Shown: positions 2,196 through 63,705, counted from the first letter of the stretch. The stretch: 64,000 nt of DNA from Thermoplasmata archaeon (GCA_022750375.1 JAKIVU010000004.1:25076-89075); one strand, 5' to 3'. Program-made: numbers and translations. The notes: generated by a model not told the origin, from the sequence alone.

Positions 2196-2239
2196 TCGGC
2201 GCGAGTCACGGGGAACACCAGGGAGTTCCCCCGCAGCGA

Positions 2240-2692: not shown

Positions 2693-2853
2693 ACGACTTC
2701 CCTCACAGGGGCAAAGCCGCGCTAGGACTTAGAAAGCGCGATTCCGGCCGCGTTCGGTTCCCGGAGGGAACCGGGGTCCCGATCGCATTCTTCCGGCCGA
2801 GCGGCGGAGATTCCGGACCCCGGCCCAGGAGCGCGGGGTCCGGTGGAAATGGT

Positions 2854-5006: not shown

Positions 5007-5025
5007 ACGGGATGTGCGCACCTCT

Positions 5026-5523: not shown

Positions 5524-6317
5524 CCCTTCCGCGGGATATGAGGCTGGCCGCGTCCGGTCGCGCGGCGCTTTCGAAGCTCGGCCCGTAGCGGCTTCGGCGC
5601 CCGCTCCGTCGCGACCGTGAGAGTGACCGGGGCAAGATGACCCGCATGTCGCCTCAGGAACCGCTCCGTGCGGCGCGGGTTTTGCTTCCAGCACTCCCTC
5701 AACCAAGTCCCGACCGCGCGCTGAACCCAGAACTCGCGGTCCGGGACGAGGAGTTCCAGGAGGCGCAGGGGTCGTTCGACTTCGCCTCCGAGCACGAGGT
5801 CGTGGAGCGCGTACGTGGCCGCTCGTCGCCGCCAGAGGCTGCGAGAGCGGGTCCACGGAAGCAGCTCCGAGTATCGCTGGGGATTTTCCCGCACCATGCC
5901 GGCGATCGGTCCCGCGGCCAAGCTGTCGCTGAGGGCCCACCCCGTCGCTTCGTCCACCCATCTCGAGGCGAGATTCCAGAGGGTCGCATCGTGCACCTCC
6001 CGATACCGGTCGAGCAGTTCGATCGCCAGGATCCGTTCGTCGTAGGTGGTACCAGCCCAGAGACTGCGGAGGATCGGGCGCAGCTCGCGGGAGGACCTCG
6101 GGCCTTCGCGCCGGCGGAACTCCCCGACGATTCGATGCAGGTCCGGAGCGGAAACGGCGAACGTAGGCAGCGGGGATCCGAGGTACTGTTGCAACGACCG
6201 TGCGATCTTCGGTCGGGCCCGTCCGCGGAGCTCGCGCAAGAACCAGCGGTGCTCGACGCCCCCCGTGACCGACAGTGGACCCGCCTCCGGCTCACCAGCC
6301 GATCGGGTGCCCTTCAT
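5520..6317 (-). CDS. DNA alkylation repair-like HEAT-repeat protein (AlkC/AlkD family-like)
   Basis: Family-typical segments YERILAIELL, WALSDSLA, WRRRAATYAL, EFWVQRAVGTWLRE. Start uncertain: ATG at 6317 chosen, giving a 26-nt overlap with the upstream gene. Confidence 0.65.
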   Translation of the reverse strand: MKGTRSAGEPEAGPLSVTGGVEHRWFLRELRGRARPKIARSLQQYLGSPLPTFAVSAPDLHRIVGEFRRREGPRSSRELRPILRSLWAGTTYDERILAIELLDRYREVHDATLWNLASRWVDEATGWALSDSLAAGPIAGMVRENPQRYSELLPWTRSRSLWRRRAATYALHDLVLGGEVERPLRLLELLVPDREFWVQRAVGTWLRECWKQNPRRTERFLRRHAGHLAPVTLTVATERAPKPLRAELRKRRATGRGQPHIPRKG

Positions 6318-8085: not shown

Positions 8086-8374
8086 GGCCAGATTGCGCAG
8101 TCGGTCAGCGGGTTGTCCGCCACCGTGGCCTATCGGGGGCGCCCACGGGACCCCCCCCTTTCCAGTCGAGGCTGCAGATTTATGTATGACGGGCGTCTGA
8201 CACCCTCAGGGAGACCGTGTCGGACAGGTCCGATTCTCGCGAGATCCTGGCTGCGGCGCCTCTGGGGAGTTGGGGCGCAGATGCGACGCGCTACCCGCTC
8301 GCCGTGATTCCCTGTTTGGGACCGCGGTACGACCGAAATGGCTTCCCGACCTTCCCCCGCCGGGACGAGAACGA

Positions 8375-8602
8375 ATGAGCTCGTCGTTCCGGAAAGTTCT
8401 CGCTCCTTCGTCGGAACTCGCGGCCGCTCCGGCCCCTGTCCCACCCCGTCTCTTCCTGGGCCAAGCGACGCCCCGCGGCTACGGCGTTCGGCCGAAGCTC
8501 TCACCCGAGGCGGCGGCGGCGTTCGCGACGTATGTCGACTCCGCGCGTGCCCGAGCGGCTGTCGAGGGACGAACCCTCGTCTACACCGTTCGCTGGGGCT
8601 AG
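8375..8602 (+). CDS. possible small hypothetical protein
   Basis: ATG at 8375 inside ORF 8270-8602; 75 aa. Only ORF-level support. Shares a CTAG convergent stop with rnhA. Confidence 0.3.
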   Translation: MSSSFRKVLAPSSELAAAPAPVPPRLFLGQATPRGYGVRPKLSPEAAAAFATYVDSARARAAVEGRTLVYTVRWG

Positions 8603-9154: not shown

Positions 9155-9664
9155 TCAGACGCGCCGTCCGACCGCCGCGCCCATCGCGGGTCGAGGCGGC
9201 AGACGGGGGCAGTTACAGAGGGCTTCGGGTCGAGTGCACCCGGGACAGGTCGCTGCGTCCCGCACGATTCCGAGGGGACGGCCGCAGCTCCGGCATTCTC
9301 TCGGGCGGGAGCAGCGCGGGCATTGGGCGAGGTCGGCGGCGATGATCGTTGAGCAGTAATGGCAGCCGACGGGCTCGCGGGGATGGTACGTCAATCCCGT
9401 TCCGGGGCGAGCGGCTCCCCGCCGTTCTTCGGCTCGCGGGCCGGGAGCATCGGGATTGCCGAACGCCCCTCCGACGGTCGTCAAGCGGGGGTCGTCCGAG
9501 ATCGATCCGATCAAGAGCACGGCCATCGCGGGCGGAATGAAGTACAGCCCCGCCTCCTGCTCGAGGTCGAACTGTTCCTGTCCGGTGAAGGCAATCGGGA
9601 ACGCGATGAGGGCGATGCCGAGCACGAGGATGCCCGCGCCGACCCCGAGGATTGCGCGGTTCAT
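9155..9664 (-). CDS. membrane protein with C-terminal double zinc-ribbon
   Basis: Two N-terminal TM helices. Cys clusters CHYC...CPRC...CRSC...CPGC...CNC. Confidence 0.6.
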   Translation of the reverse strand: MNRAILGVGAGILVLGIALIAFPIAFTGQEQFDLEQEAGLYFIPPAMAVLLIGSISDDPRLTTVGGAFGNPDAPGPRAEERRGAARPGTGLTYHPREPVGCHYCSTIIAADLAQCPRCSRPRECRSCGRPLGIVRDAATCPGCTRPEALCNCPRLPPRPAMGAAVGRRV

Positions 9665-9816
9665 TGTGACGGCCCGAAACGGCTCGGACGCCGTTCCCCG
9701 TTGTTAGTCGCAGCGGCCCAGATAAGCCCGCGTGCGCGAGAGCGCGTTCGGCGGTCGGCGGTCCGGGCAGGGCCCCGAGCCGCGCGTCTTTTAGCCCCCG
9801 ACGGGGTCGGTCCCGC

Positions 9817-10287
9817 ATGGCGAACCCCACGGCGACCCTGAGGACCACAGTCGGCGACATCCGTATCGAACTGTTCCGCGACCGGGCGCCGAAGACCGTC
9901 GAGAACTTCATCTCGCTCACGAAGAAGGGATTCTACAACGGCGTCCAGTTCCACCGGGTGATCCCCGGATTCATGATCCAGGGCGGAGACCCGAAAGGGG
10001 ACGGGACGGGCGGCCCCGGCTACACGATCAAGGATGAGTTCGACAGCACGCTGCGGCACGACGGCCCGGGGATCCTGTCGATGGCGAACGCCGGACCGAA
10101 CACGGGGGGGAGCCAGTTCTTCATCACGCTCGCCAAGACCTCGCACTTGGACGGCAAGCACGCGGTGTTCGGGCGCGTCCGGGGCGGACAGGATGTGGTC
10201 GAGAAGATCGGCGGCGTCCCGCGCGACTCCCAGGATCGTCCGAAGAGCCCGGTTCGGATCGTCGAGGCGACGATCCAGGGCGCGTAG
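9817..10287 (+). CDS. peptidyl-prolyl cis-trans isomerase, cyclophilin type
   Basis: [15 protein letters not shown] and [17 protein letters not shown] motifs. 156 aa, TAG stop. Confidence 0.93.
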
Positions 10288-12650: not shown

Positions 12651-13100
12651 TCAGGGCTTCAAGTCGGGGTTGAGCCGGGTCACGTTTCCGTCCGGGTCGA
12701 CCACCTATGCCTCCCAACCCCACGACCTCTTCCTCCGCGGAACGAGGAATCGGACCCCATTCTTCTCGAGGGCGGCGCAGGCGGCCTGGAAGTCTCCCCG
12801 GAGGTCGAGTTGGATCCCGCTGTTCCCCGGTTCGACAGAGCACGCCGGGTCGAAGGTCGGGATATCGCATTGGTGCACTCCCCCATTCTGTCCCTTGCGA
12901 CCGACGACCACCCAGGGCGCGCCCGGCCCGGTGCCCTGCTCGATCACGTCGAGCCCGAAATTCCGCGTGTACCCGGTGACCGCCCTCTTGCGGTCCGCGA
13001 CGACGAGGGCGATGCTGTGGAACGAGGCCTTCGGGACTGGGACGCGAGACCTCTAGACGGGAATGAATCGCCCTGAAGCGGCAGACCGTCCGGTCGACAT
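12651..13100 (-). pseudogene. VOC/glyoxalase-family gene interrupted by two in-frame TAG codons (pseudogene or read-through candidate)
   Basis: Minus-strand frame reads ATG(13100) MSTGRSAASGRFIPV-TAG(13055-13053)-RSRVPVPKASFHSIALVVADRK...GVRFLVPRRKRSWGWEA-TAG(12707-12705)-VVDPDGNVTRLNPDLKP-TGA(12653-12651). The family motif DPDGN lies after the second TAG. It aligns along its length with the intact paralog at 36963-37358. Confidence 0.6.
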
Positions 13101-13146
13101 AACCCCCGCCGGAGTTGGCCGCCCGCCCCGGCGCGACGGGATTCCA

Positions 13147-13219
13147 AGCCACTGGAGGGATTTGAACCCCCGACCTGCTGATTACGAATCAGCTGCTCTG
13201 CCTACTGAGCTACAGTGGC
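13147..13219 (-). tRNA. tRNA-Thr (anticodon CGU)
   Basis: Cloverleaf read by eye: acceptor GCCACTG/CAGTGGC, D arm GCTC..GAGC, anticodon stem GCTGA/TCAGC with loop TT-CGT-AA, T arm GGGGG-TTCAAAT-CCCTC, discriminator T. No encoded CCA. Confidence 0.9.
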
Positions 13220-13246
13220 GCGAACGGGTGGACCACCGGGCGCGGA

Positions 13247-13253
13247 CTATAAT
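13247..13253 (-). promoter_or_regulatory. candidate TATA box for tRNA-Thr
   Basis: The minus strand reads ATTATAG 28-34 nt upstream of the tRNA 5' end. It overlaps the TAG stop of the upstream PLP-enzyme gene. Confidence 0.4.
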
Positions 13254-14500
13254 GGTGCCGCCTTCGAGTGCGTGTCAATCGAGTCCAGCGCCTCCGTGAC
13301 GTCCCGGACCAGGTCGGCCGAGTCCTCGATCCCGAAGGCGAGTCGCACGAGTCCGTCATCGATCCCGGTGGCCTGAAGCTCTTCCTCGGAGAGATGTCGG
13401 TGGGACGTCAGCCGCGGCACGCAGGCGAGGCTCTCCACTCCCCCCAGGCTGGACGCGACGTGGACGAATCGGAGCGACCGCAAGAACTGGTCGACGGCGA
13501 CCCGGCCTCCTCGCAGCGAGAGCGACACGACACCGCCCCGGCCCCGCATCTGGCGCGCGGCGATCTCCTCCTCCGCATCACTCGCGCGACCCGGGTAGTG
13601 GACCCGCGCGACCGCCGGGTGCACCGAGGCCGCCGCCGCGACCCGCGCTCCGCTCGCGTTCTGACGCTCGACTCGAAGCGCGAGCGTCTTCAAGCTCCGA
13701 CCGAGCAGGTAGGCTGCGAACGGGTCGAGGGTCGCGCCGAAGTAGAACTTCGCGTCGACCCGCCCGACGAGCGCTCGGGGTCCCACGAGAGCTCCGGCGA
13801 CCAGGTCGGAGTGGCCTCCAAGGTACTTGGTCGCACTCTCCACGACGAGGTCGGCGCCGAGTGCGAGTGGATTCTGGTTGATCGGAGTGGCGAACGTGTT
13901 GTCGACGAGCAGCATCGCGCTCGTTCGGTCGCACGTCGCAGCCCAACGCGCGATGTCGTGGACGTGAAGCAGCGGGTTCGTGGGACTCTCGAGGAGGACG
14001 AGCCGCGTCGGATTACCGAGCACCGCTTCCGGCATCCCGGCGGCCTCGTCGCGCACGGTGCGCACCCGGACACCGAACCGTGGGAGGAGCTCCGAGAGCA
14101 GGTCGGTGGTTCCTCCGTAGAGCCCGCCGACCGCCACCACCTCATCCCCCGGCTGAACGAGGGAGAGCACCGTGGCGCTGATCGCGCCCATTCCCGACGC
14201 GAAAAGGCGGACCGCCTCGCCGCCCTCCATTTGACGGATCAGCTCGGCAGGGACCTCGACGCTCGGGTTGTCGCTGCGCGTGTAGAGGTAGGTGTTGCCG
14301 TGCTGCGCGGCCTCGGAATACTCCGACGGGAAGTGGTAGGTCGAGGTCTGGTAGATCGGGGGCACTACCGAGCCGGCGTTCCAGTCCGGCCGCCGGGCCC
14401 CATGGACCAGCCGCGTCGTCGGGCCGACCCACGAGGGGATAGGGTCGAACCCCTTCTTGGGAGCGACCGTCGCTTCGGGCTCGCCCGGTGTACTCGTCAC
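13247..14500 (-). CDS. Cys/Met-metabolism PLP-dependent enzyme (cystathionine gamma-synthase/beta-lyase / O-acylhomoserine sulfhydrylase family)
   Basis: PLP-lysine context ESATKYLGGHSDL. YTRSDNPS and DNTFATP motifs. Trimmed to the GTG at 14500, which overlaps the upstream TGA (GTGA). Confidence 0.85.
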   Translation of the reverse strand: MTSTPGEPEATVAPKKGFDPIPSWVGPTTRLVHGARRPDWNAGSVVPPIYQTSTYHFPSEYSEAAQHGNTYLYTRSDNPSVEVPAELIRQMEGGEAVRLFASGMGAISATVLSLVQPGDEVVAVGGLYGGTTDLLSELLPRFGVRVRTVRDEAAGMPEAVLGNPTRLVLLESPTNPLLHVHDIARWAATCDRTSAMLLVDNTFATPINQNPLALGADLVVESATKYLGGHSDLVAGALVGPRALVGRVDAKFYFGATLDPFAAYLLGRSLKTLALRVERQNASGARVAAAASVHPAVARVHYPGRASDAEEEIAARQMRGRGGVVSLSLRGGRVAVDQFLRSLRFVHVASSLGGVESLACVPRLTSHRHLSEEELQATGIDDGLVRLAFGIEDSADLVRDVTEALDSIDTHSKAAPL

Positions 14501-21851: not shown

Positions 21852-23579
21852 TCAGCCGGACGTCGGTGGAGCGCGGGGCTCGGCCGCCTCGGCAAAATCC
21901 TCGCGGAGCCGCATCCGACGACGGGTCCGATGGTACGTCACCGCGAACCGGTGGGACTCATCGCGCACCGCCCGAAGGAGCAGCATCGGCGCCGCGTTCG
22001 GGTTCGGCTTGAGCGGCGTCGCGCGGTCGGCGAGATAAACCTCCTCCTCCCGTTTTGCGAGACCGATCACGGGGATCCGGTCGGTGAGGTTGAGCGCCGA
22101 GAGCGAGGCCAGGGCCGCGGAGAGTTGGCCCGCTCCGCCGTCGATGAGGAGCAGGTCGGGCAGGATCTCGGATTCTGCGACGCGCCGAAGATACCGGCGC
22201 CGTACGACCTCGGCGATCATCGCGAAGTCGTTCATCCCGGGAACGGTGCGGATCCGGAAGCGACGGTACTCGGAGCGTTTCGGCAGCCCCCGCTCGAACA
22301 CCACCAGAGACCCGACCGCCTCCGACCCCTGGAAGATGGAGATGTCCACGCCTTCGATCCGGTTCGGGATCGTCGGGAGAGACAGGAGGCTCTGCAGGGC
22401 GAGGAGTACCTCTCGGGGAGCCGCTCGCGGAGTCACCTGGTCGACGGTCGCACGCGCGAGTCGCTCGGCGAGACGTCCGAGCCCCGCGTAGCGACCGGTC
22501 GGTCGGAATTGGACTTCGGTGCCTCGCGAGGCGAACAGCTCGTCCAGCGTCGCGTCGATCCCCGCGGGCCGCGGCCCCACGATGTAGATCCGCTCGGGGA
22601 GCTCGATCCTCCCGCCGTAGTACTGGGTCAGGAACTGACGCAGGATCTCCCCGGGGTCCGGGAGGTCGTCCGCAGGGATCGTCACGAGGTGGGGTTCGGT
22701 CTGACGAACCTCCCCTTCCTCGACCCGCAGGAGACCCACGGCCACACGGAGGGTCGAAGCCTCCTGCGGGAAGGCGAGGGCGATCACGTCGGCCCGGGCG
22801 GAGCCGCGTCCGAGCACCGACTGGCGCTCCGCCAGCGCCCCGAGCCCGGCGAGCGCGTCCCGAAGGAGTGCCGCGCGCTCGAACTCCTGACGTCCCGCGG
22901 CCCGGCGCATTTCCTCCTCGACTTCCGGCCGCACGAGGGAGGACTGACCCCGGAGGATCGAGACCGCGCGGTCGATCCGGGAACGGTACGCGTCCCGGTC
23001 GATCGCGCCGATGCACGGAGCGCTGCAGACCTTGAGATGATAGTACAGACAGGCTTCCTTCGGGAGTCGTACGCACCGTCGAAGCTGGAACAGATCCCCG
23101 AGCAATCGTTCCACCCCCCGCGCCTCCCGCGCGCTCGTGTAGGGTCCGAAGAGCAATGTTCCGGGCCGACGACGAGGGCGGCGCACGAGGATGATCCTCG
23201 GGAACTCCTCTCCTGCCGTGACGGCCAGGTACGGGTAGCTCTTGTCGTCCTTCAGGAGCACATTGTACGGGGGCTGGTACTGCTTGACGAGGCTCGCTTC
23301 GAGGAGGAGCGCCTCGCGTTCGGTCGCCGTCGGCACGAACTCCACGCTCGCGCTCTCCGCGATGATCGACCCGTCCTTCTCGATCCGGGCCCGCAGATGG
23401 TCGAGCACGCGTCGGCGTAGGCTCCGCGCCTTCCCGACGTAGATCACGTCACCCTGCGCGGAACGGAAGAGGTAGACTCCGGGGGCATCGGGACCGGTGC
23501 GGAACCCGTCGCCCGACGCCGCCGCAAGCTGGCTCGCCGGTACGAATGCCGGCAGGTCGACCCGCCGTTCGCCGCTCAT
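21852..23579 (-). CDS. uvrC: excinuclease ABC subunit C
   Basis: GIY-YIG context GVYLFRSAQGDVIYVGKARSLRRRV. The ATG at 23579 overlaps the uvrA TGA (ATGA). The track ORF extends spuriously to 24149. Confidence 0.93.
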   Translation of the reverse strand: MSGERRVDLPAFVPASQLAAASGDGFRTGPDAPGVYLFRSAQGDVIYVGKARSLRRRVLDHLRARIEKDGSIIAESASVEFVPTATEREALLLEASLVKQYQPPYNVLLKDDKSYPYLAVTAGEEFPRIILVRRPRRRPGTLLFGPYTSAREARGVERLLGDLFQLRRCVRLPKEACLYYHLKVCSAPCIGAIDRDAYRSRIDRAVSILRGQSSLVRPEVEEEMRRAAGRQEFERAALLRDALAGLGALAERQSVLGRGSARADVIALAFPQEASTLRVAVGLLRVEEGEVRQTEPHLVTIPADDLPDPGEILRQFLTQYYGGRIELPERIYIVGPRPAGIDATLDELFASRGTEVQFRPTGRYAGLGRLAERLARATVDQVTPRAAPREVLLALQSLLSLPTIPNRIEGVDISIFQGSEAVGSLVVFERGLPKRSEYRRFRIRTVPGMNDFAMIAEVVRRRYLRRVAESEILPDLLLIDGGAGQLSAALASLSALNLTDRIPVIGLAKREEEVYLADRATPLKPNPNAAPMLLLRAVRDESHRFAVTYHRTRRRMRLREDFAEAAEPRAPPTSG

Positions 23580-26437
23580 CGACGTCGGGTGCGCAGGAGG
23601 GGCATCGTCGGGGCCAGGACCGGCTTCAGATACCGACCCGTGTGCGAGGCGGGAGTCCGGGCGACCTCCTCCGGCGTGCCCGCCACGACGACGTGCCCGC
23701 CCGCTCCTCCCCCCTCCGGGCCGAGGTCGATCAGCCAGTCGGCGGACTTGAGCACCTCGACGTTGTGCTCGATCACCACGACCGTGTTCCCTCCCGACCG
23801 GAGCCGGAAGAGGACTCCGAGCAGCCGCTCCACGTCCGCGAAATGGAGTCCGGTCGTCGGTTCGTCGAGGAGGTAGAGTGTCTTGCCCGTCGGAGGCTTC
23901 GCGAGCTCGTAGGCGATCTTGATCCGCTGCGCCTCGCCGCCCGAAAGCGTCGTGGCGCTCTGCCCCAGGCGGACGTAGCCGAGCCCGACCTCGGCGAGCA
24001 GGCGGAGTCGGCTCTCGATCCGTCGGTGGTGCTGGAAGAATTCGAGGGCGACGTCGACGGTCATCGCAAGGACGTCCGCGATCGTCTTGCCCTTGAACTT
24101 CACCTCGAGAGTTTCTTCGTTGAACCGCTTTCCGCCGCACTCCTCGCACGCGACGTAGACGTCCGGGAGAAAGTGCATCTCATACCGGATCACGCCATCG
24201 CCCTCGCACGCCTCGCATCGCCCGCCGGCGACGTTGAAGCTGAATCGGCCCGGTGCGAATCCACGCGCCTTCGCCTCCGGCAGGCTCGCGTACAGCTCCC
24301 GCACTGGGGTCATCACGCCGGTGTACGTCGCGGGATTGCTGCGTGGGGTGCGCCCGATCGGCGACTGGTCAATGAGGAGCACCCGGTCGATCTCGTCGAT
24401 CCCCTCGATGTAGTCATGCTTGCCGGGGCTGTCGCGGCCGAGCCCGAGGTGCCGGCGCACCGCCTTGTAGAGGATCTCCTCGAGGACGGTCGATTTCCCG
24501 CTTCCGGAGACTCCCGAGAACGCGACGAAGAGCCCGAGCGGGATCCGTACCTCTTCGCCCTTCAGGTTGTGTTCCCGCGGTCCATGGATCGTGAGGAACC
24601 GCTGACCCAGCGATGCCCGGCGTTCCGGGACCGCGATCGACCGTTGGCCCGAGAGGAACTGCGCGGTCACCGAGCGCGGGGTGCCGGCGATCGCCGCCGG
24701 CAGACCCGAGTAGAGGATCTCGCCGCCGTGGACGCCCGCGCCGGGCCCGAGGTCGACCAACCAATCGGACTCTCGCATCGTCATCTCGTCGTGCTCGACG
24801 ACGAGGAGGGTGTTCCCGAGGTCCCGCAGGGTCTTGAGCGTCGACAGGAGACGTGCGTGATCGCGGGGGTGGAGACCGATCGATGGCTCGTCGAGGATGT
24901 AGAGGACCCCGACCAGTCCCGACCCGATCTGGGTCGCGAGCGCGATCCGCTCGGCTTCGCCGCCCGAAAGGGTCCCCGAACCGCGGTCGAGGGTGAGGTA
25001 GGTGAGCCCGACGTTCTCGAGGAACCGCAGTCGCGACCGAATCTCCTTGACGACCTGGCCCACGATCTGTTCGTCCCGTTCCATCAGGGTGAGCGCGCGA
25101 AACAGCTCGGCCGCATCGAGCACCGTCATCGCGGCGACATCGGCGATCGACTTGCCTTCGACCGTGACCGCGAGGCTCGCCGGCTTCAGACGCTTCCCAC
25201 CGCACCTCAGGCACGGTTTGAACGAGAGGAACCCGAGGTAGTACTCCTTCGCGCTCTCGCTCTTCGTCGACTTCCAGCGGCGTTCGACGGCGGCGACCAG
25301 CCCCTCCCGGAGCCACCCGGTACCCCACCAATGGCCCGGACCGCGGACGGACCAACCGAGGCTTTTGTCCGAACCGTACATCATCGCCTTCCACCCTTTC
25401 TCGGAGAGTTCCCGGACCGGGCGGTTCGGTCGATAGTCGAACATCGCGGCAAAGTCGGCGAGTCCCCGCGCGTCCGGGGTCAATCCCCAGACCGCGATCG
25501 CTTTCGCGAGCGGTTTCTCCTTGTCGGGAACGATCCGGTCGGGGTCGGCGTGGAGCGTCGCCCCGATCCCGAGGCACTCGGGGCAGGCGCCGAACGGATT
25601 GTTGAACGAGAACATCCGCGGGGTGAGCTCTTCGATGGAGAACCCGCACTCCGGGCAGGCGCGCCGACTCGAGAACGTCTCTCGCGCGCCGCCCGGTAAC
25701 CGGAGGATCACGAGGCCGTCACCGAGGTCCCGCGCAAGGGCGATCGCTTCCGCGAGCCGGGTCTCCTCGCCGGGGACGACCTCGAAACTGTCGACGATCA
25801 CCTCGATGGTGTGCTTCTTGTTCTTCTCGAGGTGGACCTCCGGACCCGGGAGCCGGACCTCGACCCCGTCGAGGACGAACCGCCGGTAGCCGGACTTTCG
25901 CAGCCGCTCGAGCACATCCCGGTGCTCGCCCTTCATCGCACGGACGACCGGCGCGATCAGATCGACCTTCGCTCTCTTCGCCCGGGACGTGACCGCTTCC
26001 GAGATCCGGTCGACCGACTGCGGCGATATCTCGTGCCCGTCGTTCGGGCAATGGGGGACCCCGATCCGCGCGTAGAGCAGACGGAGGTAATCGTAGATCT
26101 CCGTCACCGTGCCGACCGTCGACCGGGGATTTCGGCTCCCTGCCCGTTGTTCGATCGCGATCGCGGGCGACAGTCCGTCGATCGTGTCGACGTCGGGCTT
26201 GTCCATCTGGCCGAGGAACTGACGTGCATACGACGAGAGGCTCTCGATGTAGCGGCGCTGGCCTTCCGCATACAGTGTATCGAACGCGAGGGATGACTTT
26301 CCCGAGCCACTCACCCCGGTGATGACGATGAACTTCCCTCGGGGGAGGTCGAGCGAGACGTTCTTGAGATTGTGCTGACGCGCGCCGCGGATGCGAATCG
26401 CGTCGGACGGTTCGGCCACGTTCTCCTCCGGGCTCAC
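23576..26437 (-). CDS. uvrA: excinuclease ABC subunit A
   Basis: Two ABC modules ([23 protein letters not shown]; [12 protein letters not shown]), signature LSGGEAQR, and zinc modules. The GTG at 26437 overlaps the upstream TGA (GTGA). Confidence 0.95.
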
Positions 26438-55661: not shown

Positions 55662-55808
55662 CGGCCGAGGCGGACCTCCTCTCCGTGCCGCCGACCCGAC
55701 GGTGAAGGCCTGGACCTCGACGGCCGAGGAGGGCGCATTTGCGCTCCGGGCAAGGACGCCGGGCGAGCGGAAGACGGTTATTCCACTTCCAACATAACTT
55801 TGGACGTC

Positions 55809-57329
55809 ATGGGCGCTTCGCTACCGATTCCGCGGGAGTTGCGAGACTTCCTCAATCTGCCCGGCCCGCAATCGATGCTGCTGCGGGGGCCGCCCGGGTC
55901 GGGCAAGACGAGCCTCTCGCTCGCCCTCCTCCAGTCGTTCTCGGGCACGCGTTGTTACGTGACGAATCGTGTGCCCGAAGATGACGTCCTGATGGCGTTC
56001 CCCTGGCTCGGCGACAACGGCAGCCACGGGATCCAGATGCTGGACAACACGAAGTCGGAGGGGGTCGCGCAGGCCGCGCGGGCACTCCTCCGCGGGTCCC
56101 CGAACCTGGTGAGCGATGACCCGTCCGAGACCCGGGAACTCACCGAATTCCTCTGGCTGCCGGAGCCGCTGCAGCGGGCGTGGGGCCAGATCGACCCCAA
56201 GAAACCGTCGCTCATCGTCATCGACTCCTGGGACGCACTCGTCGAGTCGTACCTCGGCCGCCCCGACGGCGGAATCGATGTCAACCTGCCCACGCGCGAG
56301 GACATCGAGCGCTCCCTCCTCCGTCGTATGGGACATGCGCGGACCCACCTGCTCTTCGTCTTGGAGCGCGAGGAGCAGTCTCAGCTCGACTATCTGGTGA
56401 ACGGCGTGGGGGTCACGAGTCGCGAGGTCGTCGAGGGTCGGCTCGAACGTTGGCTCACGATCTACAAGCTCCGCGGTGTCCGGATCGAGAACCCCCTGTA
56501 TCCGTTCTCCCTGGAGTCCGCCCACTTCGAATGCATCGTGCCGCTCCGACCGTACGCGCAGCTGCGCGGCGGCCCGTTCAATCCGGAGCCCGACCGGCTC
56601 CCCGGAAGACTCTGGCCGGGTTCCGCAGCCTTCGCAGAGAGCTTCGGCCGCCTCCCGCTCGGAAAGTCGACGTTGGTCGAGGTGGAAAAGGAGGTCCCCA
56701 ACCACATCCCCCTCCTGCTCCTCGCCCCCACCCTGGCGAGCACGGTCGCTCGGAACGGGCGGGTGATCTTCGTTCCGGATGCGAGTACTCGCCCGGACGA
56801 CGTCTGGGAGGCGCTCCACGGCTCCGTCGAGCGGGACCGGTTCCTCTCGCACGTCCGATTCCTTCTCCCGCCCGCGGGACCGAACGAGGGAACCTCCGAG
56901 TTCGAGCCCACGATCGTGCGTCTCGGTCAGCCCACCGAGGGGATCGTCCCGGGTCCGAAGGACGACATCGGGATGGACCAGTTCCTACGGTCTGGATCGA
57001 CGGTGGAGTCCCCCGGGCTGTTCGTCGTGTTCTTGCAGGGACTCGTGGCGGCCGCGACGTCCCTCGGGATGGCCATCACTCCCGAAGTCGCGCAACGGCT
57101 CCCGGGCCAGATCCAGGCCGCGGTCCGCGGTTCGCCCATCCACGCGATCGCGGTAGGCTCCTCCCCCTCGCCGCTCTTGGACCCGCTCCGATCGACTGCG
57201 GCCCTGCGCCTGCATATCCGACAGGTGCAGGGGCGGGTGTTCCTCCACGCGTCGGACCCCTGGACGCCGTCGTTCGTGCTGACCGAGGGGACCGACACGT
57301 CGCCGTACGGCCTCCTCCGCATCGTGTAG
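55809..57329 (+). CDS. KaiC/RecA-superfamily double-domain ATPase (second domain without P-loop)
   Basis: Walker A GPPGSGKTS and Walker B-like SLIVIDSWD in the first half. The second half (from about GRLPLGKSTLVEVEKE) lacks GxxxxGK[ST]. ATG at 55809 preferred over TTG at 55800. Confidence 0.75.
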   Translation: MGASLPIPRELRDFLNLPGPQSMLLRGPPGSGKTSLSLALLQSFSGTRCYVTNRVPEDDVLMAFPWLGDNGSHGIQMLDNTKSEGVAQAARALLRGSPNLVSDDPSETRELTEFLWLPEPLQRAWGQIDPKKPSLIVIDSWDALVESYLGRPDGGIDVNLPTREDIERSLLRRMGHARTHLLFVLEREEQSQLDYLVNGVGVTSREVVEGRLERWLTIYKLRGVRIENPLYPFSLESAHFECIVPLRPYAQLRGGPFNPEPDRLPGRLWPGSAAFAESFGRLPLGKSTLVEVEKEVPNHIPLLLLAPTLASTVARNGRVIFVPDASTRPDDVWEALHGSVERDRFLSHVRFLLPPAGPNEGTSEFEPTIVRLGQPTEGIVPGPKDDIGMDQFLRSGSTVESPGLFVVFLQGLVAAATSLGMAITPEVAQRLPGQIQAAVRGSPIHAIAVGSSPSPLLDPLRSTAALRLHIRQVQGRVFLHASDPWTPSFVLTEGTDTSPYGLLRIV

Positions 57330-57450: not shown

Positions 57451-57927
57451 ATGACGCAGCTTCGATACTTGATCGTTGACGACTCACCTACTGTCCGGCT
57501 GACCATCAAACAGGCGCTGAGCCAGGAGAAGGTGCCCCCGGAAAACGTCTCCGAGGCCGGTACAGCGAGCGACGCGGTCGCCGCGTTCGACCGCACGAAC
57601 CCCGACGTCGTATTCCTGGACGTGACGCTGACGGAAGGCCCGGGCAACCCGGGAAACGACCAGTTCCTAGACCTCCTCAACCACCCCCGCGCGATGCCGA
57701 AGAGCGGCAACGACGTGGCGCGGTATCTGCGCGCCCGGAACCCGAGCGTGACGATCGTCGTCTGCACCGGCAATGCCCCCGACGACCCTCGCGTGCGGGA
57801 GCTGATCAAGGGCGGCGCGTTCCAGCTGCTGCAGAAGCCGGTCCACCTCGCCCAGATCCGCGAGGTGCTCCGGCAGGTGCGAGATGAGAAGGACGCCCCC
57901 GGGGCCGCGGCTTCCGCCCCCCCGTAA
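57451..57927 (+). CDS. single-domain response regulator (receiver) with an internal insertion
   Basis: DD (LIVDDSP), phospho-Asp context VVFLDVTL, Thr IVVCTG, Lys LLQKP. The Asp-to-Thr spacing is 49 residues, versus 28-30 in the neighbouring receivers. Confidence 0.85.
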   Translation: MTQLRYLIVDDSPTVRLTIKQALSQEKVPPENVSEAGTASDAVAAFDRTNPDVVFLDVTLTEGPGNPGNDQFLDLLNHPRAMPKSGNDVARYLRARNPSVTIVVCTGNAPDDPRVRELIKGGAFQLLQKPVHLAQIREVLRQVRDEKDAPGAAASAPP

Positions 57928-57945: not shown

Positions 57946-59142
57946 TCAGCGCGCCGGGTAGCGCGTCGCGAGGGCGTTCGATACCTCGGGAAAATCCCGC
58001 GCGATCTCCGCGACCAGGGATTTCATGCGAGGGAGGTTGCCGGCCTCGCCCTGCATCTCGAGCGTGGCGCAGCGCCGGGAGAGCGCGAGGGCACCGAGTT
58101 GTGCGCAACTCGACTTGAGGCTGTGGGCGGCGCGGACGATCGCCGGGGCATCCCCGCGCGCCGCGGCGGCCTCCAGCGTCTGGACGAGGCGTCGCCCCTC
58201 CTCCAGGAACGCGGCGACGAGCGCGGGGAGGAACGTGGCGTCCGTGCCCGCGAGCTCTCGCAATTGAACCCACGTCGCCGCATCCAGGGGTTCGTTCGGG
58301 GCGGCGGAGCTTCGGGGTCCAGGATCACCGGGCCCCGAGGACGCACCGGGCGTGGGGCTTACCGTCCCCCGTCGTTCTCGCGAGACCGCACGGAGGAACA
58401 CCACCGTCCAAGACCGGCCCTCCGCGGGGAATTGTCGGACGACATACTCGAGCTGCGCCGGGCGCCCGTCCGGTCGGGCCACGGTCACCTCACCTGCACC
58501 GAACGGCGTCGCCGAAGAACCGTCCCGGTCGAGGCGGCCGCGCGCGTCGGTCCCGACCGACCCGCTGGCGATCCCCGTGAGCCACGGGGGCGTTTCGCTG
58601 GACCCACTGAGGGAGGACCCGGTGAGCTCCGTGAACGCGGCGTTCACCGTCGCGCCCCCACCGTCCATCAACGCTACCACTCCCTCGCCGAGACGACTCA
58701 GCTCTTCGAGAGAGGCGACGTCAGGGATCTGGTGCGCTTCGAGACGGGTCTCGATCTCTCGATGGAGGATCGCGACTCGGATCGCGTGCGCCAGCAACCC
58801 CCGCGGAAAGATCCCCTTCACGAGGTAGTCCTGCGCACCGGCCGCGATCGCGGCCCGAACGAGCGCGGGATTCTCCGAACCCGTGAGAACGACGACGGCC
58901 ACGGCGGGCGCGGCCTCGCGGATGCGCCGCAGGCCGTCGGTCCCCTGGCTATCGGGCAGCCCGAGGTCGAGCAGCACCACATCGACCGCACCGCGCCCGA
59001 GCTGCTCGAGGGCCGCCGCGATCCGACCCGCCCGTTCGCACCGGAACGTTCCCTCCGGTTCGTGTGTCAGCGCCCATTCGACCAACCGAGCGTCGCCCGG
59101 ATTATCGTCGACCACGAGCACGCGAACCGGGGTCGTCTCCAT
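57946..59142 (-). CDS. REC - PAS-like - HPt phosphotransfer protein
   Basis: Receiver motifs VLVVDDNPGD / VVLLDLGLPD / VVVLTGS / DYLVKG. The central about 130 aa are PAS-like. C-terminal HPt signature VRAAHSLKSSCAQLGALALSRRCATLE (His codon at 58123-58125). Confidence 0.8.
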   Translation of the reverse strand: METTPVRVLVVDDNPGDARLVEWALTHEPEGTFRCERAGRIAAALEQLGRGAVDVVLLDLGLPDSQGTDGLRRIREAAPAVAVVVLTGSENPALVRAAIAAGAQDYLVKGIFPRGLLAHAIRVAILHREIETRLEAHQIPDVASLEELSRLGEGVVALMDGGGATVNAAFTELTGSSLSGSSETPPWLTGIASGSVGTDARGRLDRDGSSATPFGAGEVTVARPDGRPAQLEYVVRQFPAEGRSWTVVFLRAVSRERRGTVSPTPGASSGPGDPGPRSSAAPNEPLDAATWVQLRELAGTDATFLPALVAAFLEEGRRLVQTLEAAAARGDAPAIVRAAHSLKSSCAQLGALALSRRCATLEMQGEAGNLPRMKSLVAEIARDFPEVSNALATRYPAR

Positions 59143-59170
59143 CGATGCTCCGAGGCGGGAGCCGGTTCCC

Positions 59171-59623
59171 CTAGCGCATGGGGAGTTCGACGGTGGTGAA
59201 CCAGAAGTTCTCGAGGGTTTTCACGACCTTGTGGAACTGCTCGAAATCGATTGGCTTGCGGACGTAACAGTTCGCGTGCTGGTCGTACGCCCGCGCGATA
59301 TCCTCCTCGGCCTGCGAGGAGGTCATCACCACGACAGGGATCCGGCGCAGGTCCGCGTCGGACTTCACCTCGCGCAGCACCTCGCGGCCGTCCTTTCGGG
59401 GCATGTTCAGGTCGAGGAACATGAGGTTCGGACGGGGGGCGTTCGCGTACTTCCCCTGACGTCGGAGGAACGCCATCGCCTCCACGCCGTCCCCGACCCA
59501 GTGGATCTCGTTCAGCAGCTTGCTATCCCGCATCACCTCCCGGACCAGACGGGCGTCAGCGGGATTGTCCTCGACCATCAGAATTTGGATGGCGCGGGTG
59601 TCTTCTCGTTCCGCGGGCGACAT
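59171..59623 (-). CDS. single-domain response regulator (receiver)
   Basis: ILMVEDNPAD / LMFLDLNMPRKDG / VVVMTSS / CYVRKP. ATG at 59623 preferred; a TTG at 59638 is an alternative. Confidence 0.9.
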   Translation of the reverse strand: MSPAEREDTRAIQILMVEDNPADARLVREVMRDSKLLNEIHWVGDGVEAMAFLRRQGKYANAPRPNLMFLDLNMPRKDGREVLREVKSDADLRRIPVVVMTSSQAEEDIARAYDQHANCYVRKPIDFEQFHKVVKTLENFWFTTVELPMR

Positions 59624-59756
59624 GTGTCGTCTCTCCAATGCGACCTCCGCCCGTATAATCGCTTGGCCGGGGTCAACGACCCCACCGGAGCACGGTGGCC
59701 GGCCGGTCGGACCGCGGGGCGCCCCTCCGAGCCTCGCCCGCCGGAACGACCCGACG

Positions 59757-61022
59757 TCAGACGAGTTCCTTCAGGCGCTCCTCGATCATCGTGAGCGCCT
59801 CGACCTTCGACTGCGCCTCGTTCGGGTCCGCTTCCTTCACCGGTTCGGCGGGCATCGCCTTGCGTTCCGCCGGAAGCGTGAAGAAGAACGTCGTCCCCTC
59901 CCCGGGGCGGCCCGTGCTCTCGACCCAGAGCTTCCCGCCGTGCCGCTCGACGACCTTCTTGCAGATCGCGAGGCCGATCCCGGTGCCGGGGTACTCCTCT
60001 CGGCTGTGGAGCCGCTGGAACAGGACGAAGATCCGCTCCTGGTACTCGGGAAGGATGCCGATCCCGTCGTCCTTCACCGAGAATCGCCAGTCGGGACCCC
60101 GCCGCTCGGCCGAGATCCAGATGTGAGGGTCCACCGCGGCGTGGAACTTGAGGGCGTTCCCGATCAGGTTCTGCAGGACCTGACCGAGCTGGACCGGGTC
60201 CCCCTCCACTTCGGGGAGCGGCCCGTGGACGACCTCGGCCTTCGCCTGGGTGATCGACTCTCGAAGATTGGAGAGGGCGAGGGTGAGCACGTGCTCCATC
60301 GCGACCCGTTGAGGGGCCTGCGAACGCGTGTCGAGCCGGGAATAGGACAGTAGCGCGTCGATCAACTCCCGCATCCTCGTCGCACCCTCCTGGGCGTATC
60401 GCATGAACTCGCGGGCGTCGTCGTCCAACTGCGCCCCGTACCGTTGTTGGAGGAGCTGCGTGTAACTGCCGACCATCCGGAGGGGTTCCTGAAGGTCGTG
60501 GGAGGCGATGTACGTGAACTGCTCGAGCTCTCGGTTCGAGCGGGCCAGCTGGGCGGCGCGCTGGGCGAGGGCTTCGACGAGCTTCTCCCGTTCGGAAAAA
60601 TCCCGAAGATAGAGGCCCGAGACCTTGTCTCCCATCATCCCCTCGACCACCCCGCTCTGCAGGACGACCTGGAGCGGTAGCACGCTCCGATCTTTCCGGA
60701 GGCCCCGGAACTCGGCGCTCGCGAGCGGGTCGCCGGGGGTGTGCGTCTCGACGAGCCGTCGTAGGCTCGCTCGAGAGGTCGCCTCGAACAGGTCGCCGAG
60801 CGGCCGACCGACCACTTCTTTTGCGGTGTAGCCGAGGAACCGCTCGATCGCGACATTGGCATAGAGAACGACCTGGTTCTCGTCGACCAGGATCAGGACG
60901 CCCAATGGCAGGTCGAGCAGCAGGCGCGCGCGCTCGCCCACGAGCGGCTCGCGACGCGGAGGCGTCCGGCTCAGAAATCCGCCGGTCAGCAGAGCCCAGT
61001 GGCCACGAGCCAAGGGTCGCAT
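59757..61022 (-). CDS. soluble PAS-domain sensor histidine kinase
   Basis: PAS (VLYANVAIERFLGYTAKEVVGRPLGDLF), H box FTYIASHDLQEPLR, N box VLQNLIGNALKF, G1 DDGIGI, G2 GTGIGLAICK. ATG at 61022 chosen; an in-frame GTG at 61118 is possible. Confidence 0.9.
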   Translation of the reverse strand: MRPLARGHWALLTGGFLSRTPPRREPLVGERARLLLDLPLGVLILVDENQVVLYANVAIERFLGYTAKEVVGRPLGDLFEATSRASLRRLVETHTPGDPLASAEFRGLRKDRSVLPLQVVLQSGVVEGMMGDKVSGLYLRDFSEREKLVEALAQRAAQLARSNRELEQFTYIASHDLQEPLRMVGSYTQLLQQRYGAQLDDDAREFMRYAQEGATRMRELIDALLSYSRLDTRSQAPQRVAMEHVLTLALSNLRESITQAKAEVVHGPLPEVEGDPVQLGQVLQNLIGNALKFHAAVDPHIWISAERRGPDWRFSVKDDGIGILPEYQERIFVLFQRLHSREEYPGTGIGLAICKKVVERHGGKLWVESTGRPGEGTTFFFTLPAERKAMPAEPVKEADPNEAQSKVEALTMIEERLKELV

Positions 61023-61170
61023 CAAGGCCCCCGCTGACCAAAGTGATGGTGTGGGACGGCGGCCCTTTCGGGTGGCCCGTCTCTCGAAGGCGACGGCGGC
61101 CCCCGGTCGGTCGCCCACCGCGAGTCCTCCCGCTTGACTCCCCGGCTCGGCGGAGTCTCTCCGCTCGTCG

Positions 61171-61968
61171 TCATGGGGGGACGGGACGCTCCCCGGTCGT
61201 CAGCGACAGTTCCTTCGGAGGGGGGGCGCCGAAACGGCGACGCGCCGAGTCGGGAGGGAAGAAGGCGATCAGGCTCATGAGCCCGGGAATCACCTCGAGG
61301 ACGGTTTTCGTGAGGATCAGTGCGTTGCTCGATGCGGGGAACACGGCATCGATCGCGAACCAGAGAAGGATCGCCGTACCGACCAGGCCGATCCGGAAGC
61401 GGGCGTTGGGGTCCCGGGTTCTCCGCAGTAGCGAGAGGTAGAGCACCGCCCCCACCACTTCCGGCACGAGGATCCCGAGGAGGGCCACCGCTTCCAGCCC
61501 CACGTTCGGACTGACCGAGTAGAGCAGCGTCGCCACCCCGTTCTGGACCGCCACTGCGTAGGGCACCTGTGAGAGCGTGTAGTACAAGGCGAGGACGTAG
61601 AAACCGGAATAGAACAACGTCAGTTCGAAGAGATGGTATCGGCCCGTGTAGACGTAGATGAGAAAGCCGACCAACCCCCACAGGAACGCGCAGTCGATGG
61701 CGACCAGGAGGAGACCCAGCGTGAGCGCCAGCGCGAACGGGAGGGCGTTCGCCACCGCGAGAGCGAGGGCGATCGCCTGGATCCCTACGTTCGCACCGAG
61801 GCCTCCCCACCAAATGGAGAATTGTGCGGTAGCCACCCGGGACTCGGACGAGACCGGTCGTTGATAGAGTCGATACCCGATGTAGAGATACACGACCGCG
61901 ACACCGAAGGCTACGACGATCGTCGCCGCCACCGTCGGCAGCGCCGAGGTCGAGACCAGACCGGTCAC
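61171..61968 (-). CDS. stand-alone seven-transmembrane protein (resembles the 7TM N-terminal module of some histidine kinases)
   Basis: 265 aa with seven hydrophobic segments by eye. Short basic loops (YRLYQRP, YVYTGR, LLRRTRDPNARF) recall the HisKA_7TM-type sensor module. It lies directly upstream of the soluble kinase. Confidence 0.7.
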   Translation of the reverse strand: MTGLVSTSALPTVAATIVVAFGVAVVYLYIGYRLYQRPVSSESRVATAQFSIWWGGLGANVGIQAIALALAVANALPFALALTLGLLLVAIDCAFLWGLVGFLIYVYTGRYHLFELTLFYSGFYVLALYYTLSQVPYAVAVQNGVATLLYSVSPNVGLEAVALLGILVPEVVGAVLYLSLLRRTRDPNARFRIGLVGTAILLWFAIDAVFPASSNALILTKTVLEVIPGLMSLIAFFPPDSARRRFGAPPPKELSLTTGERPVPP

Positions 61969-62292: not shown

Positions 62293-62658
62293 ATGGTCGA
62301 CACGTCGGAGCGGGTAACGGTTCGGATCCCGCAAGAACTTCTCGAGAAGTTGAAGCAGATCCAACAGTCGAAGGAGACTCCGACGATCTCCGACACGATC
62401 CGAGACGGGCTCGAGCAGTACATCGAGCTGAACCTCCCGCCCCAGAACGTGCGGAAGGTGGTGGTCGAGCTTTCGCGGCAGGACAATAACCGGCTCGAGG
62501 AGTTCGTCCGCGAAGGGAACTCGGTCAGCGTCGATGACGCGGTCCGATCCGCGGTGCGCGAGTACATTCGCGGTCGACTGGAACAGCTCGGCCCATCGAC
62601 GCGTTCCCATCGCCGGGAGGGGGAATCGGTCGCCGCCGAGGGCTCCCCTCCGCCCTAG
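62293..62658 (+). CDS. ribbon-helix-helix (CopG/Arc-like) protein with two RHH-like units
   Basis: RVTVRIPQELLEKLKQI... and KVVVELSRQDNNRLEEFVREG...AVRSAVREYI each fit the beta-strand-helix-helix pattern. 121 aa. Confidence 0.7.
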   Translation: MVDTSERVTVRIPQELLEKLKQIQQSKETPTISDTIRDGLEQYIELNLPPQNVRKVVVELSRQDNNRLEEFVREGNSVSVDDAVRSAVREYIRGRLEQLGPSTRSHRREGESVAAEGSPPP

Positions 62659-62673
62659 GCGGTCGGGGGACCG

Positions 62674-63705
62674 ATGTCGACCGATGTAAAACCGCCCGAG
62701 AATTGGGCGTCGCTCGCGCTCGCCCCGCCGTGCGCGGTCGTCGGTCTGGGGGGCGCGGGCAGCGAAGCCGTCCAGGACCTCGTCAATCTCGGCATCCCCG
62801 GAGTGCGTGCGTTCGCCGTGAACACCGACGCGAAGCACCTCCTCCGCATGGGGGTGGAGGAGCGGATCCTCATCGGGGCCCGAGAGCTGCGTGGTCGCGG
62901 CAGCGGAGGCGACCGTGCCTCCGTGCTGCGCGCCGCCGAGGACGGCAAGGAGGAGATCCTGCGCCGCCTCGCCCCGTTCGAGATCGTGTTCCTTCTCGCG
63001 GGCCTCGGAGGAGGCACGGGGAGCGCCCTCCTACCGTTCCTCGCGCGCGAGCTCCGCAAAACCGAAACGTTGCCCGTTCCGGTCGTATTCCTTCCGTTCC
63101 AGGTCGAGCTCGACACCAACCAGGGACGGCGCGAGAACGTCGAGGCGACCATCGCCGAGCTGGAGCAGATGGGGGGCCTCCTCCTCGCCCTCGCGAACGA
63201 GAAGCTCCGTCGGTTCGAGTCGCTCCCGATCCACCGTGTCTTCCACGTCCGGAACGCCTACCTGCATTCGCTCGTCACGAGCCTCGTCGATATGGTCGAG
63301 AATCCGTCCCAACTGAACGTCGACCTCGCGAGCCTAAAGAATCACCTCCGAGAGGCCGGCCTCTCGACCCTCGTGGTCGGCGAGTATCACGTTTCGGAAC
63401 CGGAGCGCCTCGTGCAACAGGCGCTCTCCGACTCGCTCCTCGACTACCATCTCTCCGACTCGACGTCGGCGATCGTCCACCTGGATGGCGGAGCGAACCT
63501 GACGCTCCGTACCCTCGACCGGGTGTTGCGCGCGATGCGCCAGCGTCTCGGCGAACCCCAGCGGCTCGTCTTTGGGACGCGGGTGCGCCCCGAGCCGCGG
63601 GAAGTCGTGCGACTGACAGCGGTGATCGGGGGCCTCCGGCCGCGGAGCGTCCGGGACGCCCTCGTCGCGGGTCCCGCGCGCCCTCCGACGCTCGTCGCCC
63701 GTTAA
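62674..63705 (+). CDS. divergent FtsZ/tubulin-family GTPase
   Basis: VVGLGGAGSEAV, VNTDAKHL, GRGSGGD, GLGGGTGSA (signature deviates from GGGTG[ST]G), T7-like NVDLAS. 343 aa with no extended C-terminal linker or peptide. Confidence 0.85.
   Translation: MSTDVKPPENWASLALAPPCAVVGLGGAGSEAVQDLVNLGIPGVRAFAVNTDAKHLLRMGVEERILIGARELRGRGSGGDRASVLRAAEDGKEEILRRLAPFEIVFLLAGLGGGTGSALLPFLARELRKTETLPVPVVFLPFQVELDTNQGRRENVEATIAELEQMGGLLLALANEKLRRFESLPIHRVFHVRNAYLHSLVTSLVDMVENPSQLNVDLASLKNHLREAGLSTLVVGEYHVSEPERLVQQALSDSLLDYHLSDSTSAIVHLDGGANLTLRTLDRVLRAMRQRLGEPQRLVFGTRVRPEPREVVRLTAVIGGLRPRSVRDALVAGPARPPTLVAR

Follow-up and report, generated by a model that had tools for sequence, protein, structure and literature searches.

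Signal transduction in archaea is poorly understood: most archaeal histidine kinases are soluble, most response regulators consist of a receiver (REC) domain only and, to our knowledge, the inputs and outputs of these kinases and regulators are almost never known. Multistep phosphorelays, and proteins that join a receiver to a histidine phosphotransfer (HPt) domain, are well known in bacteria. In this study, we analysed a 64,000-nucleotide stretch of DNA (hereafter the window; GCA_022750375.1, JAKIVU010000004.1:25076-89075) from the metagenome-derived genome of an uncultured soil member of the Thermoplasmata, in which the original prediction, made from the sequence alone, had recognised a four-gene His-Asp-His-Asp phosphorelay cassette. 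The genes in question encode a seven-transmembrane (7TM) protein, a PAS-containing histidine kinase (HK), a single-domain receiver (REC1) and a 398-amino acid (aa) protein with REC, PAS-like and HPt regions (REC-PAS-HPt); a convergent pair, comprising a second single-domain receiver (REC3) and a GvpD/KaiC-like ATPase, lies beside them. We propose, with moderate confidence, that these six genes form one signalling unit in which a 7TM input, a kinase docked by its C-terminal tail, a His-Asp-His-Asp relay and an ATPase output would be connected.

In archaea, hybrid HK-REC-HPt proteins have been reported only in Methanomicrobia, MA2013 of M. acetivorans being one of them (PMC5847659, PMC11784639), while a Methanosarcina relay has been partly reconstituted, its downstream HPt step being still open (PMC11784639), and a 2018 census counted three kinases and four regulators in 11 Thermoplasmata genomes (PMC5847659). 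In view of these hybrid proteins and the Methanosarcina relay, the original statement that archaeal HPt domains are mostly confined to CheA was too strong. The present locus has in common with the unorthodox hybrid kinases (TorS, ArcB, BvgS and BarA, and those of Methanomicrobia) the four-step His-Asp-His-Asp chemistry and a receiver directly upstream of HPt, and the HPt region of the 398-aa protein scores best against that of TorS (TIGR02956 positions 882-952). Unlike the TorS/ArcB type, it distributes its modules among four polypeptides, REC and HPt are separated by an inserted PAS-like domain, a soluble kinase is accompanied by a separately encoded 7TM protein, a transcription-factor regulator is lacking, and the lineage is Thermoplasmata. 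Stand-alone REC-HPt (‘RRHPt’) proteins are rare, numbering 312 in 264 of 7,609 proteomes (PMC4558063), and archaeal members and their gene context are not described in the RRHPt literature examined; the window protein has the same architecture with a PAS-like domain added.

REC1 matches the Rcp1/RcpA partners of Cph1-type kinases and the H-box of the locus kinase reads ASHDLQEPLR, although, unlike Cph1, this kinase has no GAF/PHY photosensory module, possesses one PAS domain only and carries an added C-terminal tail that resembles a docking peptide. KaiC-REC and REC-MEDS/DUF835 fusions and KaiC-like ‘hubs’ in archaea are described in PMC5847659, and in Haloferax one phenotype is influenced both by the KaiC-like CirA and by a two-component system (PMC13464002). 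The locus likewise links a KaiC/GvpD-like P-loop ATPase with receivers, but REC3 and the ATPase are separate genes, and the C-terminal half of the ATPase shows no relationship to the GvpD basic regions; no gas-vesicle (Gvp) genes were found in the window or among the genes listed around the related loci L002, L004, L085 and L086. GPCR (G protein-coupled receptor)-like 7TM folds, some of them fused to kinases (7TM-HK), are widespread in prokaryotes (PMC13581589). As in these proteins and in the accessory membrane proteins of three-component systems, a polytopic 7TM protein would serve as kinase input here; unlike 7TM-HK, it is unfused (among the best 150 family members), has partners of several enzyme classes and would be coupled to them through a short tail. 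Phosphorelays, REC-HPt proteins and REC-KaiC links are systems of kinds that have been described before. The literature surveyed, which did not cover Makarova et al. 2017, contains no Thermoplasmata relay that is split and includes a REC-PAS-HPt protein, no fixed association of such a relay with a GvpD-like ATPase, and no mention of the stand-alone 7TM family or of the shared tail.

The four same-strand open reading frames (ORFs) and their spacings (52 or 148, 118 or 133, and 28 nt, depending on start choice) were reproduced, as were the 18 nt between the stops of the convergent REC3 and REC-PAS-HPt genes and the quoted motifs SHDLQEPLR, NLIGNALKF, DDGIGI, GTGIGL and AHSLKSSCAQLGALALSRRCATLE, all of which occur in the translations of the locus. 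Comparison of gene calls around orthologues, in three GTDB genomes and in 26 metagenome loci retrieved by means of the 7TM alignment, revealed that the conserved unit is larger than the four genes first proposed: it comprises six, in which the 7TM, kinase, REC1 and REC-PAS-HPt genes, in this order, converge with the ATPase-REC3 pair. Every contig with enough DNA carries this block, the 7TM gene being present as one or two tandem copies, and the complete set is found in the window and in L002, L004, L006, L008, L085, L086, L098, L102 and L104 (about nine distinct loci). In one outer context it is flanked by RHH (ribbon-helix-helix)/FtsZ-like genes on one side and TenA/GNAT/MFS genes on the other, and in a second by GlnA/AsnC/DeoC/PQQ and Fe-ADH/PhoU genes, respectively; since two subclades have retained the block in these unrelated surroundings, it persists as a unit. 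In the window and at all orthologous loci, HK, REC and HPt are encoded on separate ORFs with their own starts and stops. The view that the cassette has no visible output and an unknown target holds for the receivers, none of which carries a DNA-binding or enzymatic domain according to Pfam; it is incomplete for the locus as a whole, because all relatives with enough DNA share the six-gene block, in which a conserved ATPase gene precedes REC3. As the block with this ATPase-REC3 pair is kept in two outer contexts, the ATPase is the likeliest output of the relay. The coordinates of these features, and of others discussed below, are given in Table 1.

Table 1. Positions of the genes, domains and residues of the signalling locus and of selected features of the window and of related loci.
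Sequence	Feature	Position	Strand	Remarks
Window	7TM membrane protein	61171-61968	-	265 aa; stand-alone; seven helices in AlphaFold2 model and charge bias; no known family
Window	PAS-HisKA-HATPase histidine kinase	59757-61118	-	453 aa, or 421 aa from ATG at residue 33 (61020-61022)
Window	Kinase H-box His207	60498-60500	-	
Window	Kinase C-terminal tail	59760-59807	-	KVEALTMIEERLKELV-COOH; conserved; core [AEDQ]RL[KR]ELV; proposed docking peptide
Window	REC1, single-domain receiver	59171-59638	-	155 aa; Pfam Response_reg, E 5.6e-20
Window	REC1, probable start	59621-59623	-	ATG at residue 6; 150 aa, the length found in orthologues
Window	REC1 Asp76	59411-59413	-	
Window	REC-PAS-HPt protein	57946-59142	-	398 aa; Pfam REC and Hpt, AlphaFold2 model
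Window	REC domain of REC-PAS-HPt	58738-59127	-	residues 6-135
Window	Asp59 of REC-PAS-HPt	58966-58968	-	
Window	PAS-like domain of REC-PAS-HPt	58387-58719	-	residues 142-252; topology of AlphaFold2 model
Window	HPt four-helix bundle of REC-PAS-HPt	57961-58281	-	residues 288-394
Window	His340 of REC-PAS-HPt	58123-58125	-	
Window	REC3, convergent single-domain receiver	57451-57927	+	158 aa; CheY-like
Window	REC3 Asp57	57619-57621	+	
Window	REC3 insertion	57631-57723	+	between beta3 and alpha3
Window	GvpD/KaiC-superfamily ATPase	55800-57329	+	509 aa; two-domain; probable start ATG 55809
Window	ATPase Walker A	55887-55910	+	RGPPGSGK
Window	ATPase Walker B	56217-56234	+	DSWD
Window	ATPase C-terminus	57300-57329	+	PYGLLR[IV]V-COOH in family
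L088	PAS-only protein	9576-10115		ends AQRLRELV
L111	PAS-only protein	9449-9976		ends ADRLKELV
L116	KaiC	5188-5961		ends VERARELV
L117	Kinase	4525-5997		ends ADRAKELI
L118	Kinase	1909-3399		ends RERLEELA (variant tail)
L119	Giant kinase, 1664 aa	1007-6001		ends AKRARELV
L002	Tandem 7TM pair	6373-8160		
L006	Tandem 7TM pair	6695-8586		
L116	Tandem 7TM pair	6001-7693		
L111	Second ATPase paralogue	12918-14477	-	distant
Window	RHH gene and FtsZ-family gene	62293-63705		divergent FtsZ-family gene
Window	UvrC ORF	21852-24149	-	765 aa

All modules of a His-Asp-His-Asp relay are encoded, as originally proposed, and His207 of the kinase, the Asp/Thr/Lys sets of the three receivers and His340 of the HPt domain are all conserved. 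Domain assignments in this study are based on Pfam (and also NCBIfam for the 265-aa protein) and structural models on AlphaFold2. In the 398-aa protein, Response_reg (residues 8-118, E 3.9e-20) and Hpt (residues 308-384, E 1e-13) were identified, the latter with 51.7 bits against a cutoff of 24.6, and the phospho-His codon predicted from the sequence corresponds exactly to residue 340. A word-indexed search of 5.8 billion proteins yielded relatives of full length, about 55 in number (352-406 aa, 36-75% identity), each of which contains REC and Hpt and, where named, belongs to the Thermoplasmata; in an alignment of 52 of these, D13, D59, K109, H340 and Q348 are invariant. Significance of the Hpt match and conservation of its His had been posed as tests of the assignment, and both came out in its favour. 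Scanning of GTDB genomes with the same alignment yielded at least three true orthologues among the matches listed, plus 76 unrelated REC loci. The model of the protein (pLDDT, short for predicted local distance difference test, 88; predicted TM-score, pTM, 0.85) consists of a receiver, an alpha/beta domain, a disordered linker and a helical bundle, the bundle (residues 288-394) having a pLDDT above 90. The REC and HPt assignments of the original prediction are borne out by Pfam; for the intervening PAS-like region, support comes from the predicted fold only: the middle domain (residues 142-252, pLDDT about 90) has the PAS-like order beta-beta-alpha-alpha-alpha-beta-beta-beta, but gave no Pfam PAS match, and its family profile reached PAS proteins among PDB sequences only at E 0.31-0.42. 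In topology only, this domain resembles PAS. The top PDB match of that profile, 3pbi, is probably spurious, and Foldseek analysis of the whole model was dominated by REC matches and is uninformative on the middle domain. A 267-aa REC-HPt form, which does not contain the PAS-like insert, occurs in the more distant lineage L118.

The kinase is a soluble PAS + HisKA/HATPase protein, as had been read from its motifs, with PAS_9 at residues 72-153, HisKA at 198-264 (E 6.6e-11) and HATPase_c at 306-418 (E 4e-29), located N, G1 and G2 motifs, and no transmembrane (TM) or hydrophobic segment; it is 61-75% identical across orthologous loci. Pfam likewise returned REC and nothing else for the third gene and for the convergent gene, both of which had been described as receivers only. 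REC1 belongs to the Rcp1/RcpA type (PDB 5te9, 1k68 and 1i3c at E 1e-45 to 1e-52), and its orthologues are 76-92% identical and retain all active-site residues. The structures nearest to REC3 are CheY proteins (E 2e-7), and 13 orthologues retain DD10-11, D57, T and K. Its Pfam REC match is split into two stretches by an insertion of 25-30 aa, the first part of which is variable and which ends in a conserved SGNDVAR; the position of this insertion, next to the phospho-Asp, is unusual.

The ATPase, which lies 121 nt upstream of REC3 on the same strand, matches GvpD_P-loop with 36.1 bits (cutoff 24) and, weakly, KaiC. Residues 10-250 only are 31-33% identical to haloarchaeal GvpD (tblastn against Halobacterium gvpD, E 2e-14), the remainder being dissimilar, and a phmmer search against the PDB gave only Walker-A-level matches to AAA+ proteins. 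The family is specific to Thermoplasmata. Among 46 homologues, the N-domain Walker A (RGPPGSGK) and Walker B (DSWD) motifs never vary, but the P-loop-like Lys of the C-domain does, which suggests that the N-domain is active and the C-domain inactive. On the same contigs the ATPase is conserved at 74-80%, as against 46-56% for the relay proteins. The C-terminus of the family, PYGLLR[IV]V-COOH, is itself strictly conserved, P502, Y503, L505, R507 and V509 being invariant in 46 sequences.

The first gene of the operon was correctly described as encoding a 7TM protein, a description that left out its most informative aspects, namely membership of a large family and neighbours that share a tail. 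In the model of the 265-aa protein (pLDDT 90.7), seven helices can be seen, with a beta-hairpin placed between TM4 and TM5, and the two faces of the protein carry 0 and 13 loop-proximal Lys and Arg; since all 13 lie on the face that includes the C-terminus, an N-out/C-in topology is predicted. This topology and the hairpin are compatible with a GPCR-like fold. The protein also has an invariant R37 and R192, an LSLLRRT loop and a PPxWxRRR segment. Foldseek matches to PDB structures were GPCRs and rhodopsins at E 2e-3 to 3e-2, none at or below 1e-3, the best with TM-scores of about 0.4-0.55 and root-mean-square deviations of 6-9 Å, which is a generic resemblance and no evidence of homology. A retinal protein was considered and rejected, as the TM7 Lys (K220) alternates between K and R among 54 homologues and no rhodopsin profile matched. 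No Pfam or NCBIfam family matched the window protein, no Pfam domain was found in ten sampled family members, and Pfam detected no transporter signatures in either. An exhaustive profile search placed the protein in a large unannotated archaeal 7TM family of 760 representative clusters at 50% identity, 665 of them at E <= 1e-10. Nearly all of the best 150 of these 760 members are stand-alone proteins of 245-300 aa, and none of the 150 is fused to a partner. The only names on the records are ‘hypothetical protein’ from archaeal metagenome-assembled genomes, and the few members with an organism named in the source record are archaeal; the family is uncharacterised. Many relatives carry two tandem 7TM paralogues (L002, L006, L091-L095, L100, L101, L104 and L116), about 47-55% identical to the single window copy, which hints at heteromeric or alternative receptors.

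The connection between the 7TM protein and its partners is suggested by a short C-terminal signature. Following a variable Pro/Ala-rich linker, 20 of 20 orthologous kinases end A[LM][ST][LM]IE[EDA]RL[KR]ELV-COOH, and at every informative locus except two the gene adjoining the 7TM gene ends [DE]R[LA][KR]EL[VI]. The tail is borne by proteins as different as PAS-kinases, PAS-only proteins (L088, L111), a KaiC ATPase (L116) and a Pkinase-GAF-kinase (L119), with a variant on the kinase of L118. A regular-expression scan of 21,648 stop-terminated ORFs of at least 40 aa, in six frames of 1.77 Mb of DNA that includes the 76 unrelated receiver loci as background, returned 27 matches, each of them in a gene that adjoins a family 7TM gene, and no others; the tail is absent from a second Rcp1-type kinase of L116, encoded 5 kb from the 7TM gene. 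Since the adjacent 7TM gene is the sole factor common to these differently built proteins, we infer that the tail docks the partner enzyme onto the 7TM protein. Homology of the PAS-only proteins of L088 and L111 to the PAS domain of the kinase reached only E 0.05 and is not claimed. The tail-bearing protein of L119 combines a eukaryotic-type Ser/Thr kinase with AAA_16, GAF and HisKA/HATPase domains, and its ORF overlaps the start of the family 7TM gene by one base.

Outside the six-gene block, the 7TM family occurs in several other arrangements. L088 and L111 carry a GvpD-like ATPase (45% identical) followed by the PAS-only protein and the 7TM protein, with no kinase or receiver; in L116 a single-domain KaiC precedes the 7TM gene; and in L117 a PAS-kinase and 7TM gene converge with a gene for MEDS, which has been described as an inactivated KaiC (PMC5847659). 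The arrangements of L088, L111, L116 and L117 support a link between the 7TM family and the ATPase superfamily. L118 contains a rearranged homologous set, in the order REC3-like, kinase, 7TM, REC1 and REC-HPt, which indicates that REC3 travels with the relay, and in L119 the giant Pkinase-AAA-GAF-HisKA-HATPase protein precedes the 7TM gene. A second, distant ATPase paralogue (28% identical over its full length) is found in L111, 2 kb from the ATPase, PAS and 7TM trio and separated from it by a CLC channel gene.

Taken together, we envisage the following pathway, the chemistry of which follows from established knowledge of the HisKA, REC and HPt families. The 7TM protein, with its N-terminus outside, would act as input or sensor, or at least as a membrane platform, and would hold the soluble PAS kinase through the tail ...IEERLKELV-COOH. 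The kinase would autophosphorylate on His207 and pass the phosphoryl group to a receiver Asp, namely Asp59 of the REC-PAS-HPt protein and/or Asp76 of REC1, from where it would move to His340 of the HPt bundle and then to Asp57 of the CheY-like REC3. Phosphorylated REC3 would contact the GvpD/KaiC-like ATPase by protein-protein interaction, and the ATPase would be the real output; analogy with GvpD and further KaiC-like proteins of archaea suggests that it may regulate how active or how stable other proteins are. The order of transfer, the docking and the ATPase output are deduced from conserved gene order, and every physical interaction in the scheme is putative.

Several observations weigh against this model. 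Three receivers are available for one HPt domain, so that several transfer orders are possible; no ligand site or sensory domain was identified in the proposed 7TM input, which, instead of sensing, might act as an anchor or a target; and the 7TM loci L112 and L115 have no tail-bearing neighbour. The ATPase itself does not carry the tail, its distance from REC3 is 114-180 nt across loci, so co-transcription is not assured, and its adjacency within one clade could be inherited synteny. It also has an existence independent of the relay, since distant homologues (at most 56% identical; L087, L089) have no REC, HK or 7TM gene nearby.

Three other explanations were considered, all of which we regard as unlikely. 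The relay might be self-contained, with its output outside the locus by way of the REC-only proteins, in which case the ATPase, and perhaps the 7TM protein, would be mere syntenic neighbours. The stand-alone ATPase homologues, the gap of more than 110 nt before REC3 and the occurrence in L118 of relay and 7TM genes with no ATPase within its 7.4-kb contig would fit such an arrangement, as would the hub role, with unlinked targets, proposed for REC-only regulators in Methanosarcina (PMC11784639); it does not readily explain, however, why the ATPase-REC3 pair stays with the relay in two flanking contexts, or why 7TM members adjoin KaiC-superfamily genes in three further independent arrangements. 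Equally doubtful, and partly overlapping with the model that we favour, is the possibility that the 7TM protein is an effector under regulation, such as a channel or transporter, or else a membrane anchor; a cytoplasmic cue would then be sensed by the kinase through its PAS domain, and the tail would serve for localisation only. That the kinase has its own PAS domain, that the 7TM model has no extracellular domain beyond a short beta-hairpin and that its fold matches are generic are in keeping with this idea, whereas the absence of Pfam transporter signatures speaks against it, and partners that are always signalling enzymes, yet of different classes, better suit a common upstream receptor than a downstream target. 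Least probable in our estimation is a simple Cph1/Rcp1-like pair of kinase and REC1, with the REC-PAS-HPt protein as a modulator (phosphate sink, reverse-transfer drain, or second input through its PAS-like domain) rather than a forward relay station: REC1 is clearly of the Rcp1/RcpA type and the best conserved two-component gene (76-92%), the REC-PAS-HPt protein evolves fastest (41-56% identity) and phosphate-sink receivers are well known in chemotaxis (cited in PMC11784639), but 52 orthologues show no variation in the HPt His or the residues around it, the short REC-HPt form is retained in the rearranged L118 module, and REC3, which co-travels with the module, needs a donor.

As a proposed signalling unit, the locus provides a wiring diagram that is testable at both ends, with a candidate 7TM input and a candidate KaiC/GvpD-like ATPase output. 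It also suggests how a large uncharacterised archaeal 7TM family is wired to cytoplasmic signalling enzymes. More tentatively, we would extend the model to the whole 760-cluster family as 7TM receptors of GPCR topology that recruit interchangeable enzymes (histidine kinases, PAS proteins, KaiC ATPases and Ser/Thr-His kinases) through [DE]R[LA][KR]EL[VI]-COOH, the relay described here linking two-component signalling of bacterial type to a native KaiC-like hub of archaea; this broader proposal is possible rather than probable. Should tail docking hold true, the partners of hundreds of as yet unannotated 7TM proteins in archaea could be read from sequence by a simple rule, and the suggested joining of bacterial two-component components to an archaeal KaiC-based network would gain a physical example.

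Archaeal origin of the window (G+C 66-69%) is supported by identical proteins deposited as ‘Thermoplasmata archaeon’ and by an archaeal-type topoisomerase I encoded in the window, and genes for Pelota, RpoD and archaeal ribosomal proteins are present on syntenic contigs. Contigs with the locus come from peat and soil samples. In agreement with the original prediction, che genes are lacking: the 64 kb contain no further HK, REC or che-like gene, nor an ATPase paralogue, the HPt domain is not in a CheA architecture, and no Che families (CheA, CheW or methyl-accepting chemotaxis protein) occur around L002, L004, L085 and L086. The matches to PADLOC anti-phage models were marginal (E 1e-4 to 4e-6) and of a generic P-loop and REC kind only, and inspection of the intergenic DNA by eye revealed nothing firm. 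The UvrC ORF of the window is matched by the UvrC profile only from residue 220 onwards, and could contain an N-terminal extension or a fused domain, or represent an over-long ORF call. Beyond the 7TM gene, a divergent FtsZ-family gene, which scores 188 bits against TIGR00065 and so falls short of the cutoff of 295, has an RHH gene directly upstream of it; in relatives sharing that context this pair is 85-98% conserved, far above the adjoining signalling genes.

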